Assembly: GCA_046597055.1 (NCBI GenBank)
Contig: JBKJLC010000198.1
Location: 1-36,469, forward strand
Direction of reading: 5' to 3'
Origin: Kofleriaceae bacterium
GTDB taxonomy: Bacteria; Myxococcota_A; Polyangia; Haliangiales; Haliangiaceae
Length of the DNA stretch: 36,469 bases
The position numbers were made by a program, and so were the translations under genes. Under the pieces are notes generated by a model. That model did not search any database and had not been told where the DNA came from. It saw only the letters and a program-made list of their open reading frames with translations. Below are positions 635-10,122 of the stretch, in pieces; the stretch's first letter is position 1, and each line of letters starts with the position of its first letter.

Positions 635-745
635 CCGCGCCCGCGAACCCGCGGAGTCCGCCGCAGATTGCCGGGTTTCGACGTGCGGGAGCACGCCGGC
701 CACCCGGTATCACGCAACAGGCGTCCGTCACGCCAGGGAGAGATC

Positions 746-2248
746 ATGCGACAGATCCGTCGAGCTTCGTTCACCGCGTTTGCTCTGCTCGTCTTCATGC
801 TGCTGAGCGCCTGCGCCAGCGACGACCCGCGGCCGGGCACCGGCACGGTCTCGGTCAGCCTGGTCGGCCAGGCGGCCTCGGGCACGATCTATCGGCTGCG
901 CCGCGCCATCGTCCTGGTGCAGGGGCCGGCGTCGACCACGTTCTGGAACACCGAGGACGATCTCACGCGCACGACGCTGTCGGCCAACGTGGCGGCCGGC
1001 GACTACTACTCGTTCCTGCAAGAGGGATGGCAGCTCGAGAAGCTGGTCGCCGGCAACCCACCGGCGCCGGTCACCGCCCAGCTGATCTCGCCCAACCCGA
1101 CCTACTTCACCGTCGTCGATGACATGCGCACCACCGTGCCGCTCCGGTTCCGCGTCCCCGAGGGCGAGATCGACATGGACCAGGGCTACGGCATCGTCAT
1201 CGAGGTCGAGGAGGAGACCTCGGTGACGCCCGGCTACTGCACCACCGACGCCCAGTGCGGCGGCGGCCAGACCTGCTGCCTCGCCGGGTTCCTCGGCACC
1301 TGTCGCGCGCTGACCGCGGGCCAGGCGTGTCCGCTGCCCGACCTGACGGTGTCGGCCGACGCCGCTCGGACGAGCCTGTCGATCGGGCACGAGACGTTCG
1401 CGCCGACCAGCTGCGCGCTGGTCGAGGGCTGCGTCGCCGGCCCCGGCGATCGCCGCCTGCTCCGCTTCTCGACCGAGACGCCCAACATCGGCGCGGTCGA
1501 CATGGTCCTCGGGGATCCGTCGACCCAGCCCGGTTTCGAGTCGTCGACCTGCCACGGTCACTATCACTTCGAGGGCTACGCCGAGTACCAGCTGCTCGAC
1601 AAGACCGGCGCGGTGGCGGCGACCGGCCACAAGCAGGCGTTCTGTCTGCTCGACCTGCAGTCGTTGCCGGGTACCACCACCGGGCCGCGCTTCCACTGCG
1701 GATTCCAGGGCATCTCGGCCGGCTGGAGCGACGTCTACGGGTCCGGGCTGGACTGCCAGTGGGTCGACATCACCGGCGTCGCGCCCGGCTCGTACCTGCT
1801 GCGCATCACCGTCAACGGCGCGCGCACGCTGCCCGAGAGCAACTACGACAACAACACCATCCAGGTGCCGGTCACGATCCCGGCCGACGGGGTGATCGAG
1901 CCGCCCGGCGATCCGCTGGCGGCCTGTAGCGCGCCGGTGGTCGGGCCCAACCGCGACTGCGGCTGGGAGGTCGCCAGTGGTCAGCAGGCCGTGGCGTGCG
2001 TGCCCGGCACGCCGGTGACCCTCGGCTGCGGCTGTGGCACCGACACCTGCGGCAGCGATCCGGTGCTGCGCGTGTGCGACGGTGGCGAGGCGTGCATCGC
2101 GGCGACCGCGCTCGCGTCGATCGACGATACCTGCGGCCTCTGTCCGCAGGCTGGGTTCGTATGCCCGGCCAGCGGCACGTACACCGTCTTGACCGCGCCG
2201 TACGCGCCGGGCTCGGCGTACGCGTGCCAGGTGTCGGCGACGCCGTAG
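746..2248 (+). CDS. Lysyl oxidase family lipoprotein with Cys-rich flanking domains
   Basis: Lipobox LSAC; RRLLRFST..PNIG, CHGHYH, GHKQAFC, GISAGWSDVY, DCQWVDITG motifs; GGGAG upstream of ATG 746. Confidence 0.88.
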   Translation: MRQIRRASFTAFALLVFMLLSACASDDPRPGTGTVSVSLVGQAASGTIYRLRRAIVLVQGPASTTFWNTEDDLTRTTLSANVAAGDYYSFLQEGWQLEKLVAGNPPAPVTAQLISPNPTYFTVVDDMRTTVPLRFRVPEGEIDMDQGYGIVIEVEEETSVTPGYCTTDAQCGGGQTCCLAGFLGTCRALTAGQACPLPDLTVSADAARTSLSIGHETFAPTSCALVEGCVAGPGDRRLLRFSTETPNIGAVDMVLGDPSTQPGFESSTCHGHYHFEGYAEYQLLDKTGAVAATGHKQAFCLLDLQSLPGTTTGPRFHCGFQGISAGWSDVYGSGLDCQWVDITGVAPGSYLLRITVNGARTLPESNYDNNTIQVPVTIPADGVIEPPGDPLAACSAPVVGPNRDCGWEVASGQQAVACVPGTPVTLGCGCGTDTCGSDPVLRVCDGGEACIAATALASIDDTCGLCPQAGFVCPASGTYTVLTAPYAPGSAYACQVSATP

Positions 2249-2281
2249 CAGGTAGCGGCGCCGGGAACGCGGGGCGCGAAT

Positions 2282-3013
2282 GTGAGCAGACCGCCCCGCG
2301 GGCAGCCGTGGGGTGGACCGGCGTCGAGCGGCTGGGCCACCTCGCCGAGCCCGCCGATGGATCCCGCAAATGCCCCGCCCGCGGGGTCCGCGCCGACCGC
2401 GCCGGTCGCGACGCCCGGCATGGCGCCGACCGCGGCCAGCGAGCGTCGCATCCGGTTCAACGCCGTCCCGCTCGACGCGCGCGGCCTGCAGACGATCGTG
2501 CAGCTCGAGACCCACGCCGGGACCCGCCTGGTCGACGGCGACTACTGGTACGATCCGACCAGCGGCATCAGCGGGCCCTGGGGCGGCGGCGGCTACGTGC
2601 TGCTGCCGGCCGGCCTGCCGCTGGGCGGTCCGCTGCCGGCCCACGCCTCGGGCGGGGGCGACGGCCGCCTCACCGGCGTGTTCGTGAATGGCCGCGAGCT
2701 GCACCCGAACGACGTCGCGACCCTGCGCAGGTTCATCCAGGTGGTCCCGGGCCGGTACTGGTTCGACGCGCGCGGCAACGTCGGCATCGAGGGCGGCCAG
2801 GCGCTGTTCAACGTCTACGCGCTGGCGCAGGCCCAGCAGGCTCAGCAGTCGGGCGGGATGCACACCAGCAGCTGGGGGCCGGGCAAGACCTGGGTCGGCG
2901 GCGGCGCCAGCGGCTCGAGCTGGGGCTCGGAGGGCGGGCGCATCACGAACGACTGCAGCTACGACCCCAGCGACGGCGCCGGCGTGGTGTGCAGCAAGAC
3001 CCAGAAGTGGTGA
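2282..3013 (+). CDS. Hypothetical protein with a GDYWYD...GVFVNGRELH...PGRYW domain (similar to plant XLG/EDR4-like proteins)
   Basis: Coding-like codon usage; Pro-rich N-terminus; recognisable aromatic motifs; start uncertain (GTG 2282 or ATG 2357). Confidence 0.75.
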   Translation: MSRPPRGQPWGGPASSGWATSPSPPMDPANAPPAGSAPTAPVATPGMAPTAASERRIRFNAVPLDARGLQTIVQLETHAGTRLVDGDYWYDPTSGISGPWGGGGYVLLPAGLPLGGPLPAHASGGGDGRLTGVFVNGRELHPNDVATLRRFIQVVPGRYWFDARGNVGIEGGQALFNVYALAQAQQAQQSGGMHTSSWGPGKTWVGGGASGSSWGSEGGRITNDCSYDPSDGAGVVCSKTQKW

Positions 3014-3144
3014 TCGTCCGCAACACGGGCAGCCACCGCGGTAGCCTGCGGCCGCGCGGGACGCGGGCCTGCGCCGACGCAGCGACTTCGATCGTGGGGG
3101 GATTCACAGGGCCGGATCTGGCTTTGTTTTCTGTCCGAACTATC

Positions 3145-3181
3145 TACGTGAATGCACGTAACATACTTTGTTCGTTGAACA
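3145..3181. promoter_or_regulatory. AT-rich promoter region with two inverted repeats upstream of the GH26 gene
   Basis: TACGTG-aatg-CACGTA (3145-3160) and TGTTC-gtt-GAACA (3169-3181) in a locally AT-rich stretch. Confidence 0.45.
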
Positions 3182-3319
3182 TTCTGTTGACCGATCCCCG
3201 TTGGCTTGGTAGTCGGAGGGGGTGGCGTCCTCGGAGGACCGCCACCACCGGGCCGCGGCCGCCACCGTCGCGCGCCCCACTACTCACGCGTCGATCCAGG
3301 TCGACGAGAGGGGGATCGT

Positions 3320-4327
3320 ATGTCCACGTCCGGCCCGAAGAGATCATCACGCGGGATCATCGCCAGCGCGATCGCCGTGAGCGTCGCCAGTGTCGCCCTG
3401 GTCGCCTGCACCGACGACCTGACCCAACCGGACGGGCCGCTGCCCGAGCTCGCGGCGCCGGCGTCGGCGTCGGTCCCGCCGGCCGAGGGCGCGCTGCTCG
3501 GCGCGTTCGTCGGGGTCGGCACCGAGAGCGCCGAAGACTTCGCGGCCGAAGAGGAGCTGATCGGCCGGCGCTGGGTGATCGACAACCGCTTCTACTCGTC
3601 GGAGGACTGGATCAACGATCGCACTCGCTGGGACATCGCCCACCACAAGATCCCGATGATCACGTGGGAGCCACAGCACCAGACGCTCGACGACATCATC
3701 GCTGGCGTCCACGATGACAACATCCGGACCCGAGCCACCGGCGCGCGCGACCTCGGGGTCGAGATCTTCATGCGCTGGGGCCACGAGATGAACGGCAACT
3801 GGTACCCGTGGAGCGGCGCCAAGAACGGCGGGGCCGCCGGCGGTGCTGCCAAGTACATCGCGGCCTACCGCCACGTCCACGACCTGTTCCGCGAGGTCGG
3901 CGCCACCAACGTGGTGTGGGTGTGGTGCCCGCTGGTCACCGACGTCCCCGCCGAGCCGTGGAACCACTGGACCCACTACTACCCGGGCGACGCGTACGTC
4001 GACTGGGTCGGGCTCGACGCCTACAACTGGGGCTCGTCGGCGCCGTGCTGCGTGTGGCAGAGCTTCTCGACGCTGGTCGCGCAGCTGTACGGCGACTACG
4101 CCGGCAAGAAGCCGCTGATGTTGCCCGAGACGTCCTCGGCCGAGGTCGGCGGTGACAAGGCCGCCTGGATCCGCGACATGCACACCGCGCTCATGACCGA
4201 CTTCACCGCGATCAAGGCCGTCGTCTGGTTCGACATCGACAAGGAGACCGACTGGCGGATCGCGTCATCGCCCGCGACCCTGGCCGCATTCAAGGCGATG
4301 GCCCACGCGCCTTACTTCAATCCCTAG
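3320..4327 (+). CDS. Glycoside hydrolase family 26 (beta-mannanase-like) lipoprotein
   Basis: MRWGHEMNGNWYPW, YYPGDAYVDWVGLDAYN and KPLMLPET motifs; lipobox-like LVAC; GAGGGG upstream of ATG 3320. Confidence 0.9.
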   Translation: MSTSGPKRSSRGIIASAIAVSVASVALVACTDDLTQPDGPLPELAAPASASVPPAEGALLGAFVGVGTESAEDFAAEEELIGRRWVIDNRFYSSEDWINDRTRWDIAHHKIPMITWEPQHQTLDDIIAGVHDDNIRTRATGARDLGVEIFMRWGHEMNGNWYPWSGAKNGGAAGGAAKYIAAYRHVHDLFREVGATNVVWVWCPLVTDVPAEPWNHWTHYYPGDAYVDWVGLDAYNWGSSAPCCVWQSFSTLVAQLYGDYAGKKPLMLPETSSAEVGGDKAAWIRDMHTALMTDFTAIKAVVWFDIDKETDWRIASSPATLAAFKAMAHAPYFNP

Positions 4328-4346
4328 CGAGCGCTCCCGCTCATGA

Positions 4347-5069
4347 TCACGGTGGTTGCGGGCGTGCGTCACGCGCGACCGCCTCGGGCCAGCCGTCGGT
4401 GTTGATCCACAGCCGGTGGAGCTCGCGCGGGCTATCGGGCGGCAGCGCGCCGCGACCGTGGAGCATGCGGTGATTGTCGACGATGACCACCTCGCCAGCG
4501 CCGAGCTCGACGCCCACGAGGGCGGCCGGGTCGTCGCCGCGGAACCGCTCGATCAGGCGTGCCGCCACCGCACGCTCGCGTGGATCGGTGGGCACCTGCA
4601 GCTGCGGCGGCAGCCAGAAGAAGCGCGACGGGGCCGCGCCCCGGGCCTCGACCACCGGCACCAGCGGGCGCGCCGCCGGCGGCAGATCATCCATCAGGTC
4701 GGCGCAGCGCAGCCGTTCGGCGAGCCGCTGGTCGTCGGCGTCGAGGTGAGCGAAGGCGACCCGGGCGTCGAGGTAGAGGTTGGTCACCGGAGTCCGGCAC
4801 GGCGTGACGCAGTGCCAGGCGCACAGGTTGGCGCGCACGCTGTCGGTGTGGAATGGCACCGGCCGCGGGCTCATCACGAAGCGGCGCGAGCTCGGCTCGA
4901 CGAAGACCCGGAGCTCGGACCAGACGGTGCCGAGCTGGCGGGCGAAGTCGAGGAAGCGCGCCGAGCTCACGCGCTGCCGGATGTGGACGACGCCACGCTC
5001 GGCCAGGTGGGCGCGCGCCTCCGCGATGGCGTCGGCGCGGTCGAGGCTGGCCATCATCGGGGCGATCAC
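4347..5069 (-). CDS. TauD/TfdA-family Fe(II)/2-oxoglutarate-dependent dioxygenase
   Basis: HxD motif PFHTDS and distal DNHRMLHGR...RELHRLW; start overlaps the upstream stop (GTGA). Confidence 0.85.
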   Translation of the reverse strand: MIAPMMASLDRADAIAEARAHLAERGVVHIRQRVSSARFLDFARQLGTVWSELRVFVEPSSRRFVMSPRPVPFHTDSVRANLCAWHCVTPCRTPVTNLYLDARVAFAHLDADDQRLAERLRCADLMDDLPPAARPLVPVVEARGAAPSRFFWLPPQLQVPTDPRERAVAARLIERFRGDDPAALVGVELGAGEVVIVDNHRMLHGRGALPPDSPRELHRLWINTDGWPEAVARDARPQPP

Positions 5070-5572
5070 GGTGCACCGGCCGGGCGGCCCCAGGCGCGGA
5101 AGCGCTGGCCGAGGCTCGCGACCGGATAGCGGCGCTGGTAGCCGTCGTACCAGCGGGCCGCGACGTCAGGGCCGAGCTGCTGGTAGACGCGGGCGATCTG
5201 CGCGCGCAGGGCGGCGCGCTGCTGGTCGGCGGTGGCGGCACTGTCCTCGACGCCGGGCTGATGGTGGACGTAACCGCCGAGGTGGTCGTCGCAGAAGGCC
5301 GCGTAGGCGCGCGTCGACAGGATGAACGCGTGCCACAGCTCGTCGACCAGGGTCATCGAGGGCGTGATCACCAGCGAGGTGGCGCGATGGCTGGCGCACA
5401 GCCACAGCCAGCGCAGCGTGTCGGCCCACAGCTCGTCGGCCTCGTCGGCGCCGAGGTCCCAGGTGGCGGCGAAGCGATCGACGATCGCGGGCTGGCGGTA
5501 GCCGAGGACCTGGGCCAGCGGCTGCGGCGGGCGGGGCACGCCATGGAGCGGAAGGCTTGATGGGAGCGGCAT
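5066..5572 (-). CDS. Glycine-rich-domain (GRDP/DUF1399-like) protein
   Basis: VDELWHAFILSTRAYAAFC...GGYVHHQP signature; ATG at 5572. Confidence 0.75.
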   Translation of the reverse strand: MPLPSSLPLHGVPRPPQPLAQVLGYRQPAIVDRFAATWDLGADEADELWADTLRWLWLCASHRATSLVITPSMTLVDELWHAFILSTRAYAAFCDDHLGGYVHHQPGVEDSAATADQQRAALRAQIARVYQQLGPDVAARWYDGYQRRYPVASLGQRFRAWGRPAGAP

Positions 5573-5670
5573 GGCGACCCGACATTGCAGCCGCCATGCC
5601 CGGTGGGCGCGGCGTCGCGGCGCTCGCAAGGTCGCGCATCGACGGGGCGGCCGGCACGAAGGCGCGGTAA

Positions 5671-5797
5671 GACGGCGCGATCGCGCTGGAGGTGGAGCCC
5701 GCGCGCGTTGCCCGCGGGCAACGGCAGGCCGGTCGAGGCGGCGACGGCGCGATCGGCGCTGGAGGTGGAGCCCCGCGCGTTCCCTGCGGGCAACAGC
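5671..5797. repeat. Two ~55-bp imperfect direct repeats; the first contains an 18-bp perfect palindrome
   Basis: Copies at 5671-5725 and 5743-5797; CGTTGCCCGCGGGCAACG at 5706-5723. Confidence 0.85.
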
Positions 5798-5958
5798 GAC
5801 GGGGCGAGGGTGCTCGCGGAGCGCGCGCTGCCGCGACGAAGTGAGCCGGCGCGCGCAGATGTCGCGCTCGCGATGTCACGCCGGTCTGGCACGCGACGTG
5901 AAGTTGCTGCGTCCATCGTCAACAACGACGACCACCACTCCAGCCACAGGATGATCCC

Positions 5959-6186
5959 ATGAAGCATTCCAAGCCTGCCCCGACCGCCGCCCCCGCCACC
6001 ACGACCGACGCCGCCGACCGTGAGCGGGCGATCGACGCCCTGCTCGCCACCGTCACTGGCGGCGGCGGCGCGACCTGCTTCAACCCCGCCATCGCGGCCG
6101 GCGCGACCTGCTTCAGCCCCGCCGTCGCGGCCGGCGCGACCTGCTTCTCGCCGGCGCTGGTGATGATGCCGTTCGACGAGCGCTGA
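5959..6186 (+). CDS. Putative RiPP precursor: double-glycine-type leader plus three 11-aa tandem cores GATCF(N/S)PA
   Basis: IDALLATVTGG leader motif; cores start at 6067, 6100 and 6133 (33-nt period); AGGA upstream; hairpin downstream. Confidence 0.75.
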   Translation: MKHSKPAPTAAPATTTDAADRERAIDALLATVTGGGGATCFNPAIAAGATCFSPAVAAGATCFSPALVMMPFDER

Positions 6187-6194
6187 CGCGAGTA

Positions 6195-6217
6195 GCCGCG
6201 GTCAGCGTGACCGCGGC
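6195..6217 (+). terminator. GC-rich hairpin after the putative precursor (terminator or mRNA-stabilising stem)
   Basis: GCCGCGGTCA-gcg-TGACCGCGGC, 10-bp perfect stem; no U-tract. Confidence 0.45.
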
Positions 6218-6301
6218 CGCCCGGTCGTGCGCAATGCCACATCGTGCCGGTTTCAACGACTTCAACAGAGCGCCTACCGTGCGTGATAGTGACGAACCGG
6301 C

Positions 6302-7435
6302 ATGATCATCTTTTACGGGCACCGCTTCTACGGGCGTATCGACGGTCACGGCGCCGAGTACCTGGCGACCACATTCGCGCATGTCTACTTCCTGCCGCTG
6401 TTCCCGACCGGCTCAAGGTGGGTGACGCGTCAGGTCGGCGATCAGGTCCTGGGCTTCGACGTGAAGCTGTCCGCGCGGAGCGTGGCGGCCGCCTATCTGC
6501 GGATCTGGGCACCTCTCTTGGCGCTCGGACTGGGCGCCACGCTGACGATCCCCGGCATCGCCGTGGCCGTCGGGCTGCTCGCGCTATCGGCGTGGAGCTG
6601 GACCTGGCTCCGGATCCGCGGCGGGCACGAACGCCGCCGCGCGCTGCTCAATCAGATCGCCTTCGGAGCCGCCTGTGATCCGATGCGCCGCCCGGTCGCG
6701 CAGTGCGAAGCGCTCCGCTGCGAGGTCGACCAGCGCTTCGCCGAGGTGAGCGGCGCTCGCACCCCGGAGGACGTCGCACGGTTCGGCGCCGACTCACCGG
6801 CGCACGCAGCCCTGGCCTACGCGTCGCTCCGGTTGGTGGCCGCGATCGCGGGCGGTGACACTGGTCGCAAGGCGCGCGCGGTGTCGGACTCCCTCCTCGA
6901 CAACGTCTCCACCGGCGATGCGAGGGCGCTCGCCGACGGCGGTCCCTACCGCGTCGAGGCGCGCGCCTCGGACTCGGTCGTCTCCGCGTTGGAGGCCGCG
7001 GCGGCCGCTGTGATCCAGGCGCAGGATCGCGGCATCGACGAGTCGATCCGCGCGGCTCAGCCGGCCAGCGCCTGGGACAACAGCCCCGAGAACCCGGCCG
7101 TCAAGGAGGAGATCGCGCGCAACAAGGCGCAGCGTGCGGGCACCAACCGCCTTGCCTGGGTCGCGCTCGTCGTCGTGGCTGTGGCGAGCGGCGCGTACGT
7201 GATCTACGACATCGCCACGAAGCACGTCGCCACCGATCGGGCGCTCACCGAGCTCCGCAGCATCAGCGACGAGCTCTGCCGGTGCCCGACCCGCGCCTGC
7301 TTCGTCGACCTGCTCGAGGCGCGCAGACCCGCCATCGACCGCGCCGAGCGCACCGTACGAGAGAACGAATCGAGCGACTCGGAGCTCGATCAGCTCGCCG
7401 ACCGGGCTGAGCGCTGTTACGACGCACTGCCGTAG
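6302..7435 (+). CDS. Hypothetical membrane protein
   Basis: MIIFYG...FAHVYFLPLFP N-terminus; several hydrophobic segments; C-terminal CxC...C...C. Confidence 0.75.
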   Translation: MIIFYGHRFYGRIDGHGAEYLATTFAHVYFLPLFPTGSRWVTRQVGDQVLGFDVKLSARSVAAAYLRIWAPLLALGLGATLTIPGIAVAVGLLALSAWSWTWLRIRGGHERRRALLNQIAFGAACDPMRRPVAQCEALRCEVDQRFAEVSGARTPEDVARFGADSPAHAALAYASLRLVAAIAGGDTGRKARAVSDSLLDNVSTGDARALADGGPYRVEARASDSVVSALEAAAAAVIQAQDRGIDESIRAAQPASAWDNSPENPAVKEEIARNKAQRAGTNRLAWVALVVVAVASGAYVIYDIATKHVATDRALTELRSISDELCRCPTRACFVDLLEARRPAIDRAERTVRENESSDSELDQLADRAERCYDALP

Positions 7436-7676
7436 CTGCGGCCAGCTCGCCCCGCGCCGGTCGCGCACGACGCGTGGACGGTGTCCGACGCTCGCGTCGC
7501 CCGGCGTTCACGTTCGCGCAGGTCGCGATCGTGACGTTCGGTGTCGTCGGGTGGCTCCCACCGGTCGCTGGTCGCGGGTCGTCGCCTCGGGCCGGCGCAC
7601 ACCAGCGTGCGTGCTACGCCTCGGGCGCCGACGACTCGGCCGCGGGCAGCTCACCGTCGCGGTGGCCGAGTCCGGA

Positions 7677-8390
7677 TCACCACCAGGCCCGCGCCGTGCG
7701 TCGGGTGACCAGGATGTCGCCGGTCGCGGTCCGGGCGACCACGTGGACGATGCGACCGGCCGGCAGGTCGATCAGCACGCGGTCGCCGGCGGGCGTCGCC
7801 GTCAGCGGCCGCGAGCTCGGCACGCCGTCGACGTAGGCCACCAGCGTGGCCGCGCGCAGGTCGACCGTCGGCGAGGTCAGCGCCCAGCGCTCGCCGGCGC
7901 GCTCCAGCTGGTCGCGGCCGGCGCGGGCCGGCCGTGACGCCGGCGCCACCAGCCGTCGAGCCCGAGCACGTCACCGCCGCGGGTGCCCTGCAGCGCGAGC
8001 CGCGCGAGCAGCGGGAGGTTGTTGTCATGCGGCCAGTCGGGCTGGAAGCTCACCGACCAGCTGGCGACGGTCAGGCTGGCGAACAGGCTGACCGCGGCGG
8101 CGGTGCGGGTGCGCAGGCCGATCAGCACGGCGACCGTCGCCAGCCAGGCGAGCCACTCGGCCGCGCGGATCGCGGCCGACGGCGGCGGTGCGTCGCCCAG
8201 CAGCATGAGGATGCCGACCGGGTGATAGACCTCGAGCGGCGCGCGCGCCGGGTCGACGATGGTGGGGGTGCTCGGTCAGCCGCGCGAGCGTGAGCAAGAC
8301 CGATCCGGCGACCCCGATCCGCACGGCGGCGGCGCTGACGCCCCCGCCGGACTCGTACCAGTACCGCTGCCAGCGCGTCGGCGTGCCCAC
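7677..8390 (-). pseudogene. Disrupted HTTM-like membrane protein gene (frameshift plus apparent internal deletion)
   Basis: Coding-like pieces in three successive frames: RWQRYWY..AAVRIGVAG; IGLRTRTAAAVSL...HDNNLPLL...GDVLGLDGWW; GRDQLERAGERW...RAWW*. Extra base in the G5 run at 8264-8268. Confidence 0.6.
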
Positions 8391-8480
8391 GATCCCGACT
8401 ACCACGCGCGAGCCCGCGCCCGCGAAGGTCAACACTGGCACCCGTGCGGCCGTGCGCACCGCCCGGCAGAGACTGGAATC

Positions 8481-9065
8481 TCAGTCCACGACGGGTAGGC
8501 CCGGCGCGGCCGGCGCGGTGGGCGCCGCGGCCTCACCGGCCGGCGCCGCGGCCGGGGCCGCGCCGAGCACGACGACCCAGGCCGAGCCCAGCGCCTCGCC
8601 GCGCTTGACCGCCGCGCAGGTCTGCTGGCCATCGGCGACGTCGGGGACCTCGGAGTGGACGTAGATGATCGCGTTGCCGCCGGCCTCCCGGGCCTTCGTG
8701 CGCAGCTCGGTGACCACGTGCTTCTTGTCGAACGTGAGGCTCGCCGGAGTCAGGCCGGTTTCGCTCGGCGCGTAGTCGTTGATGGCGCAAGCGCCGTCGA
8801 TGTCGACCAGCTTGACGGTGCCCAGGATCCGGTGGCCGAAGCCGGGCTCGGCCTTGAGCTCGTTCTCGCGGAGCGAGAACCCGTCGGGACCGGTCCCGTA
8901 GAACACCCTCACGTCCTGCGGCGTGGCGACGATGGGCGCCGAGGTCCGCGATGCGTCGTACTCGCCGTAGGCGTCGAAGCGCGTGCTGGAGAAGACGGCC
9001 GGGCCGCACCCGATCGATCCGGCTGCCAGCGAGAGAAGAATGATCGAGAGCAGGGACGACCGCAT
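8481..9065 (-). CDS. Hypothetical lipoprotein
   Basis: Signal peptide with SIGC; ELRTKAREAGGNAIIYV motif reminiscent of YbjQ/RcsF-like folds. Confidence 0.75.
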   Translation of the reverse strand: MRSSLLSIILLSLAAGSIGCGPAVFSSTRFDAYGEYDASRTSAPIVATPQDVRVFYGTGPDGFSLRENELKAEPGFGHRILGTVKLVDIDGACAINDYAPSETGLTPASLTFDKKHVVTELRTKAREAGGNAIIYVHSEVPDVADGQQTCAAVKRGEALGSAWVVVLGAAPAAAPAGEAAAPTAPAAPGLPVVD

Positions 9066-9210
9066 GGCGGATAGATACGCGATGCCGGCGTCACTCCGGC
9101 GTGCACACACCGGCAAACGACGTGGTGCGCCGAGAGTCGCGCAACCTTCGGCCGACCGACCCCGCGCCTACATGCCGAGGCCAAGCCTGCGGCCGTGGTA
9201 CCCACGTTCG

Positions 9211-10122
9211 GTGCACCTCCTCTTCTGCGGCTCGGGCTGGCCCGACATCGTCGACCGGATCGCCGCCCGGCTGGCCCCGGGCGACACCATTGGGCGCTGG
9301 GATCGCGCGCGGCCGCTCGCCGACGAGCTCGCCGCCACCGCGGTCGACGTGCTGTTGCCGTCGAACGCCCACGTCGACGCCGCGGCGATCGCGGCCGGGG
9401 CGCACGCGCTGCGCCTGATCCAGCAGCCGGCCGCCGGCACCGACGCGATCGACCTGGCCGCCGCCGCCGCCCACGGCATCCCGGTGTGCAACGCGCCCGG
9501 CGCCAACCAGACCGCGGTCGCCGAGGCCGCGCTGCTGCTCCTGCTGCTCTGCGCGCGCCGGTGGCCGGTCGCGCGGGCAGCGTTCGAGCGCGGCGCGATC
9601 GGGACGCCGCTCGGCACCGAGCTGGCAGGCGCCCGGCTGGTCGTGGTCGGCACCGGCAAGACCGGCGCGGCCCTGGCCGAGCGGGCGCGCGCGCTCGGCA
9701 TGGACGTCCTCGGCCTCGACTCGCGCACCGGACGCGGCGAGCGGCTGGCCGCCTTCGCCCGCGCCGACGCGGTGAGCCTGCACTGCCCGCTGACGACGGC
9801 GACCCGTGGCCTGATCGACGCCGAGGCGCTGGCCGCGCTGCCCGCCCACGCGATCCTGGTCAACGTCGCGCGCGGCCCCGTGATCGACCGGGCCGCGCTC
9901 GCCGACGCGCTGGCGCGCGGCCACCTCGGCGGGGTCGGGCTCGACGTCTACTGGGACGAGCCGTGGGACCCGCGTGATCCGATGTTCGCTGACCCGCGGG
10001 TGGTGACGCTGCCCCATGTGGCTGGTTCGACCACACGAGCGTTCGACGCCATCGCGGCGATCGTCGTCGAGAACCTCGCTCGGATCGCGAGCGGCGAGCC
10101 GCTGCGACATCGTATCTCCTAG
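9211..10122 (+). CDS. D-isomer-specific 2-hydroxyacid dehydrogenase
   Basis: [24 protein letters not shown] and PHVAG motifs; GTG 9211 chosen as start. Confidence 0.9.

Follow-up and report, generated by a model that had tools for sequence, protein, structure and literature searches.

Organization of the locus

The window, i.e. the whole stretch of 36,469 nucleotides analysed here, is an entire contig (C18) of a host genome of 8.4 Mb with 72% G+C. It carries a short open reading frame (ORF) for a repeat-containing precursor peptide and, divergent from it, a two-gene operon encoding a GRDP-like protein and a TauD-type Fe/2OG oxygenase. These two partner genes were absent from the first-pass annotation; with them, what had been an orphan precursor becomes a cassette. 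The cassette is also present in G107, a second Kofleriaceae-family genome belonging to another genus, in which the precursor orthologue is P0002. The features are distributed as follows:

4347..5069, minus strand: TauD-family Fe(II)/2-oxoglutarate oxygenase, 240 aa; 4-nt overlap of its start with the stop of the GRDP-like gene, likewise in G107 (PF02668, alignment)
5066..5572, minus strand: GRDP-like/UCP032817-like (PF27765) protein, 168 aa when started at ATG, in a frame that is open from TTG 5629; predicted leader-binding maturase (Atlas, profiles, model)
5683..5797, no strand assigned: two copies of an intergenic repeat of about 43 nt, each with a GTTGCC-N4-GGCAAC-type palindrome; candidate activator sites (repeat search)
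5887..5902, plus strand: 16-nt non-coding element, identical in G107, beginning with TGGCACG (G107 comparison)
5948..5951, plus strand: AGGA, ribosome-binding-site-like; AGGA is also found 5' of the ATG in G107 (sequence, G107 comparison)
5959..6186, plus strand: precursor ORF, 75 aa, with leader M1-G35, three 11-aa units and a short C-terminal follower (ORF list, translation, orthologue P0002)
6016..6063, plus strand: leader helix and double-Gly (D20-G35); predicted GRDP-like docking site, predicted C39 cut after G35 (alignment, leader profile)
6067..6099, plus strand: unit 1, GATCFNPAIAA (repeat period 33)
6100..6132, plus strand: unit 2, GATCFSPAVAA, DNA 94% identical to unit 1 (repeat and codon comparison)
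6133..6165, plus strand: unit 3, GATCFSPALVM, codon-level orthologue of the last G107 unit (codon comparison)

The 75-aa peptide with three units and a 33-nt period, as initially described, was recovered (ORF 5959-6186; units 6067-6165). G+C content at the three codon positions of this ORF is 0.63, 0.67 and 0.93. The three units reach a TRF score of 151, compared to 60 for the next best of the 72 rows obtained on the window, and to a maximum of 70 in 500 codon shuffles. The pattern ATCF[NS]P occurs three times in the six frames of the 8.4-Mb genome, each time in this ORF. The repeats were also found in public data: a contig of run X1, which may be the source sample, spans 5500-6214, contains the three units and differs at one position, outside the ORF. 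The best public-run carriers of the sequence are soil metagenomes of one study; none of the carriers listed is an RNA run, and runs X5, X6 and X8 contain short unrelated pieces only.

Three other genes of the window were noted. A 377-aa ORF with hydrophobic segments and no Pfam or NCBIfam match lies 3' of the precursor (6302-7435, plus strand) and is absent beside the G107 cassette. A lysyl oxidase-domain protein with a Cys-rich repeat (668-2248, plus strand) and a GH26 glycoside hydrolase (3206-4327, plus strand) are unrelated to the cassette.

Conservation of the precursor and of its upstream region

The first-pass annotation had proposed a conserved double-Gly-type precursor, and one homologous peptide was indeed found among 311 candidates: P0002 (57 aa, two units, two Cys in all). 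G107 provides the sole significant precursor match outside the host in 147 genomes of the order, and below it there is noise only. It contains the three genes arranged as in the window, including the 4-nt overlap, in unrelated flanks, the two partner proteins being 57% and 67% identical to those of the window. Further TCF-type precursors were found neither in the metagenome scan nor among 8,000 longer proteins, the single-protein scan of genome contigs gave no match, and the best score of an Atlas search (0.84) was uninformative; according to these searches the precursor is known from two genomes only. No claim is based on the unpublished genomes G037 and G038.

Comparison of the units shows how the repeat was built. 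Between units 1 and 2 there are two non-synonymous changes (AAC>AGC and ATC>GTC) and no synonymous ones. Unit 2 therefore arose recently by copying of unit 1, and AGC/TCG does not represent a synonymous switch; silent differences are observed only in comparisons with unit 3 or with the orthologue. The codons of unit 1 match the first G107 unit, and those of unit 3 the last one. It had been argued initially that the differences between repeats point to selection on the peptide; the argument fails for units 1 and 2, but its conclusion stands. In the 37 codons aligned with P0002, a small sample, 28 residues are identical in the sense frame, with pN 0.186 and pS 0.398. The resulting ratio of 0.47 equals that of the neighbouring TauD gene (0.193/0.415). 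The same comparison on the antisense frame 5919-6242, which the first-pass annotation had considered as a possible better explanation of the repeats, gives 24 identical residues out of 37, with pN 0.23, pS 0.277 and a ratio of 0.83. Although the antisense frame is uninterrupted in the two genomes and has its third codon positions in common with the sense frame, these ratios favour the latter, whose start (MK) and end (ER-stop) are kept in G107.

Upstream of the ORF, TGGCACG at the beginning of the 16-nt element is a sequence which we take to be sigma-54 -24 box-like; the -12 box is imperfect. The palindrome is perfect at 5707-5722 and degenerate at 5778-5794, and one such palindrome is present upstream in G107. 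Neither a sigma-70 promoter nor a terminator was found in 4200-6400, and Rfam gave no match in 5000-6400. The sigma-54-like box and the palindromes suggest, at the level of sequence, that expression of the precursor is regulated. The TGGCACG sequence is not a general property of the family: a match lies upstream of 5 out of 16 family precursors, and two of these five are inside the upstream gene.

Leader and predicted processing

Residues G34 and G35 are invariant in 13 aligned peptides. The available text of PMC10885120 gives as a rule for C39 leaders a GG, GA or GS end with hydrophobic residues (L, I, V, M, A) at positions -4, -7 and -12, and by this rule the precursor leader is suited to a cut after G35, with V32 (-4), L29 (-7) and A24 (-12). 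The corresponding residues of P0002 are V, L and L. The leader had first been described as resembling (E/D)xLxxVxGG: the GG, V(-4), L(-7) and A(-12) are present, but the literal motif does not fit, the Asp being at -10.

The proposal that AAG could be an inter-core cleavage site is not supported for a C39 enzyme. A cut after AG would have I/V at -4 but N/S at -7 and G at -12, a cut after GA would have P at -7, and hydrophobic residues are therefore missing at -7 and -12 (P/N and G/A). At the same place the G107 orthologue has EGG with a hydrophobic -4, which makes this spacer a constrained linker. A C39 enzyme is unlikely, as judged from these residues, to free the cores one by one. Either a different protease has to be assumed or a product in which the cores remain linked, and one of these is the probable fate of the units.

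The C39-ABC transporter which the initial proposal placed elsewhere was sought in the genome. Six C39 matches were found, two of them full-length C39-ABC genes on contigs C190 and C245, and the window contig contains no gene for a C39-domain transporter or protease. Similarly, none of the four C39 matches of G107 is on the cassette contig. Two regions of this kind were noted in passing: at C190:7214-11200 (G000) a separate double-Gly hydrophobic peptide accompanies a C39-ABC gene and an HlyD-like gene, and at C42:1-5449 (G000) a cut C39 gene lies 3' of a 1,132-aa ORF which by eye is lanthipeptide dehydratase-like.

The leader was also examined with profiles. With a Myxococcota leader profile built without the window and G107, the precursor ranks 10th among the 59,813 small ORFs of the genome with 5.9 bits, below the 9-bit threshold, and P0002 scores 12.4 bits. 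With a leader profile trained mostly on low-GC hosts it obtains -1.8 bits and rank 936 out of 59,813.

The GRDP-like protein

The 168-aa protein has no direct Pfam or NCBIfam match. Its assignment comes from Atlas comparison with PF27765 clusters (0.94, 221 of 256 features, recognition 2280, just below the guide value of 2300) and from a profile-profile match (97% probability, E 7e-11) to proteins which are themselves above the PF07173 cut-off, an indirect link to PF07173; one relative is named 'glycine-rich domain-containing protein' by NCBI. The gene is single-copy in the host genome and present in 20 of the 147 genomes of the order, and the profile gathers 8,953 clusters at E<=0.001. Alignment of the family reveals invariant D, W, H, T, Y, H and P and near-invariant C and H; the invariant residues include D77-x-x-W80-H81, Y90 and H104-x-P106. 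E78 is invariant in 18 rows and not in the wider GRDP-like set.

The predicted model is all-helical by DSSP (pLDDT 88). Fold searches gave no clear match (Foldseek best E 2.1; VIA best Z 3.7 and 4.6), from which a new fold is not implied. No PDB sequence matches the protein, borosin and BURP enzymes included, and for RRE (PqqD-like) and BURP folds the all-helical model likewise gave nothing higher than these two Z values among the matches listed. In the literature searched, which has limited coverage of subscription journals, no paper connects UCP032817, PF27765, DUF1399 or GRDP-like domains with RiPPs, and no biochemical function of PF07173 or PF27765 was found. The terms sought are absent from PMC13489965, and the available part of PMC8939145 contains nothing specific for this question.

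Association with Cys-containing peptides across the family

To our knowledge, plant GRDP proteins have been studied by phenotype only. The genomic context of bacterial relatives was analyzed on the best 80 of 154 confirmed GRDP-like loci from named genomes, which belong to Myxococcota, Bacteroidota, Gammaproteobacteria, Cyanobacteria and others. Leader profiles were seeded by eye and iterated, with a threshold of at least 9 bits. A leader-like small ORF is present in 54 of the 80 loci and in none when the same ORFs are reversed, a count which is partly in-sample. In leave-cluster-out tests the candidate headed the list of about 73 small ORFs per locus at 38 of 39 loci, the single miss being a tie with a local tandem copy. 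The leader consensus is approximately K-x-x-L-I-E-x-L-L-x-K-N. Cores are enriched in Cys (13.6% compared to a background of 2.8%), at least one Cys is found in all 50 peptide groups (42 picked by profile, 8 added by eye), and in most family cores the Cys residues lie close together (CxC, CC, CxxC). None of 20 family peptides reaches an NCBIfam cut-off.

Half of the leaders (27/54) have no GG-type end, which means that the helix is conserved for a different purpose than C39 cleavage. Within 4 kb, a C39-ABC family gene is found in 18 of the 80 loci (a representative was checked) and HlyD in 10. GG-type ends are found in 9 of the 13 leaders with a linked transporter versus 18 of the other 41, which is not a significant difference (p=0.2).

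Other neighbours at family loci are methyltransferases, P450, JmjC, 2OG oxygenases, glycosyltransferases and DUF6817. At nine loci (L073, L100, L107, L110, L115, L132, L134, L138 and L140) the peptide and the domain are present with no recognisable tailoring enzyme among the scanned neighbours. The number of such loci is at least nine, the final scan having covered 41 of the 79 listed genes and earlier scans the others, and this favours the domain as the enzyme. Carriers in culture include Cystobacter fuscus (L073), Paraliomyxa miuraensis (L140), Fulvivirga imtechensis (L134/L137) and Pseudoalteromonas luteoviolacea (L078/L118).

Several variants of the locus were observed. At L008, L010 and L011 (G124, G134 and G130) a Ser/Thr kinase-like gene flanks the GRDP-like gene on one side. 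On the other side are one to three short proteins that combine signal-peptide-like N-termini with an internal leader-like helix and Cys-Cys-containing ends, which suggests a Sec-exported branch. In Fulvivirga and relatives (L110, L117, L130, L132, L134, L137, L138, L141, L149 and L150) the GRDP-like gene is followed by a sensor histidine kinase of 1,100 aa, and a peptide was found at most of these loci, which could constitute a peptide signalling module. At L003/L075, L004/L077, L159 and L160 it overlaps, in a different frame, an ORF for a very short peptide; at L003/L004 an ornithine cyclodeaminase-family gene and a 448-aa ORF come next. At L116 and L127 it adjoins a DUF6817 (SmaX-family) gene and a gene for a 245-aa protein, the peptides of L127 having a GD motif. 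Partner enzymes are nucleotidyltransferase-like at L078 and L087, an asparagine synthase at L080, a PLP decarboxylase at L097, a methyltransferase plus P450 at L118-L123 and L136, and an aminotransferase plus lantibiotic dehydratase at L144.

Natural fusions

The domain and its putative substrate are also found in one polypeptide. Among the top 150 relatives, 14 have at least three Cys in their last 40 residues; one of these is the domain itself, which leaves 13 Cys tails. Most fused tails are preceded by a leader-like helix, a likeness which rests on inspection of the alignment since leader profiles at 8 bits or more recognise 1 of the 150 relatives, fused or unfused. The AlphaFold2 model of the fusion P0024 (pTM 0.85; pLDDT 95 for the helix, 60-68 for the linker and 50-64 for the Cys tail) fits with a leader-like helix docked on the domain. 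A leader-like stretch is N-terminal in P0042. Some domain-leader-core fusions have no second enzyme domain, and in others the domain is fused to TauD (P0050), JmjC (P0104), methyltransferases (P0110, P0118) or a glycosyltransferase (P0095). Separately, GRDP-like proteins with Gly/Cys low-complexity tails or tandem domains, which are TIGR04222-tail-like, were noted (L178, L179, P0067, P0128).

The oxygenase and the Cys-aromatic motif

The oxygenase scores 53.6 bits against PF02668 (cut-off 27). Its HxD...H triad and the 2OG Arg are intact, H74, D76, H204 and R215 being invariant in 9 rows. The nearest solved relatives (7TCL, 7N7V, BBOX, PvcB) are small-molecule hydroxylases and desaturases, which makes Phe beta-hydroxylation the simplest guess; desaturation or a Cys-aryl link are possible alternatives.

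Which residues the enzyme may act on is suggested by the cores. A Cys-[FWY] pair, which is TCF in the precursor studied here, is present in 6 of 8 TauD-linked peptide groups versus 4 of 42 others (p=3e-4), in a test made post hoc on kin which are not independent; when the window and G107 are excluded, the proportions are 4/6 and 4/42 (p=0.005). Counted per Cys, 12 of 35 are followed by an aromatic residue in TauD-linked cores and 4 of 145 elsewhere. As counter-examples, the TauD-linked cores of L079 and L092 have no such pair. When 401 genomes of the phylum were searched with a TauD-only profile, 11 matches outside the host were obtained, 8 of them above 130 bits. Seven of these eight have as neighbour or fusion partner a GRDP-like domain with a twice-repeated Cys-Trp-His (CWH) tail at its end, four of the seven being single TauD-domain-tail ORFs; the eighth is close to the end of a contig. 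The proportion is to be read with the fact that the CWH lineage was represented by one member in the profile (A4). The CWH tails were found after the Cys-aromatic test and agree with it. Among the loci, TauD-GRDP-like-CWH tail ORFs are fused at L163, L164, L165 and L168 and split at L054-L056, L166, L167 and L173, and the tail is highly conserved.

Comparison with known systems

No family of a known RiPP class (lanthipeptide, YcaO, rSAM, graspetide, MNIO, lasso) was detected with Pfam and NCBIfam on the precursor and its neighbours from 668 to 10119. TIGR04222/MNIO was considered as an assignment for the window locus and rejected, there being no MNIO (DUF692), DUF2063 or TIGR04222 match among window proteins.

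Four described systems have features in common with the cassette. Substrates of C39-peptidase ABC transporters (PCATs, such as LahT and ComA in the available text of PMC10885120) share the GG end and the hydrophobic -4, -7 and -12 residues, and C39-ABC and HlyD genes are found beside 18 and 10 of the 80 family loci. They differ in that the cassette has no known class-defining enzyme and no transporter on its contig, and that half of the GRDP-like family leaders keep the helix and not the GG. In the part of PMC12186529 available, 24 GG-precursor/PCAT clusters without a known class-defining enzyme are reported. The same part of that source describes SmaO-SmaX, in which a Fe/2OG oxygenase is likewise a secondary RiPP enzyme, whereas the cassette has a short oxygenase of the TauD family, whose link is to Cys-aromatic motifs and not to Asp. 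Burpitides (plant BURP-domain) and borosins have split and fused autocatalytic pathways according to the accessible portion of PMC11253845. The GRDP-like domain is similarly found stand-alone beside a precursor or fused to a putative core, and cores are repeated, but the system is bacterial, its cores are Cys-centred, a leader-like helix separates domain and core, and no sequence match relates the domain to these enzymes. Finally, MNIO Cys peptides (bufferins, methanobactins) have minimal clusters in which Cys is the presumed target, and TIGR04222 tails are treated as MNIO substrates in the portion of PMC12452194 available, which resembles the Gly/Cys tails of L178/L179; the cassette differs from what is described there by its double-Gly-type leader instead of a Sec signal.

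Proposed pathway and alternative explanations

A precursor with leader and core is co-conserved with genes for putative modifying enzymes, as is general for RiPPs, and ORF 5959-6186 is very probably translated as a precursor of this type. We propose that the GRDP-like protein would grip the leader helix, an interaction which is rather probable, and could modify the Cys of each TCF unit through a D/H/H site. That the domain is itself the Cys-modifying enzyme, presumably metal-dependent and oxidative, has about an even chance of being right. The TauD-type oxygenase would then oxidise the Phe adjacent to the Cys; that it acts on the Cys-aromatic motif, most simply by beta-hydroxylation, is on balance the expectation we favour. 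A C39 transporter encoded elsewhere may cut after Gly35 and export the tandem cores, a step for and against which we would weigh the chances equally. The complete chain, i.e. GRDP-like binding and Cys modification, Phe oxidation, and C39 cleavage and export, with a predicted chemistry, is evenly balanced between right and wrong. New enzymes that define a RiPP class are seldom found and in most cases come with new chemistry; the cassette probably represents a new RiPP class with a candidate new maturase family.

The same cassette could be read differently, with the GRDP-like domain as a non-catalytic leader-binding scaffold or chaperone, RRE-like in role with another fold, and the oxygenase as sole modifier. 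We consider this rather unlikely, though it accounts for the variety of partners to which the domain is fused or adjacent (TauD, JmjC, methyltransferases, glycosyltransferase, P450, nucleotidyltransferase-like) and for a domain to which no catalytic fold can be assigned. The loci, at least nine, where peptide and domain occur with no recognisable enzyme nearby argue against a scaffold, as do the domain-leader-core fusions devoid of a second enzyme domain; the invariant D, W, H, T, Y, H and P, moreover, seem to resemble an active or metal site more than a peptide groove.

It is improbable that the peptide escapes covalent modification and acts as a Cys metal ligand or a signalling peptide, the GRDP-like protein loading or holding the metal. 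The closely spaced Cys of most family cores would suit such a role, L091 adjoins a heavy-metal P-type ATPase, and the sensor kinases 3' of several Bacteroidota loci hint at signalling. But the precursor has three Cys in 75 aa, 11 residues apart, i.e. one per unit with no CxxC and no His, and the orthologue has two in all; clusters of CxC, CxxC or CC and a high Cys content, as in metallothionein-like proteins, are lacking. The metal-binding role offered initially as an alternative is thus the weaker reading, and it leaves the coupled oxygenase, its domain-tail fusion and the Cys-aromatic bias unexplained. That the repeats are slippage in non-coding DNA or a property of the antisense frame is very improbable indeed: recent duplication of unit 2 and an open antisense frame with common third positions would allow it, but the better conserved frame is the sense one, with the TauD-like ratio, it is the sense ORF whose MK start, ER-stop, AGGA and upstream 16-mer are kept, and its leader matches peptides at other loci.

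Returning to the RiPP cassette with an active GRDP-like domain, its extension to the family is more speculative. We put forward tentatively, with the chances somewhat against it, that the GRDP-like/DUF1399/UCP032817 domain is a new class-defining peptide-modifying metalloenzyme without a recognised solved fold, existing in split and autocatalytic fused forms. It would define a large and so far unrecognised class of RiPPs in Myxococcota, Bacteroidota, Gammaproteobacteria and Cyanobacteria; GRDP proteins from elsewhere, plants included, would then carry its substrates in their Gly/Cys tails, and the window locus would be the three-gene multicore case, in which a TauD-type oxygenase acts on Cys-Phe. 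The smallest form of the system would consist of one 170-residue protein together with a peptide, or of one fusion protein of about 215 residues. A role which can be tested is thereby proposed for a domain family that comprises thousands of clusters and is related to the plant GRDP proteins.
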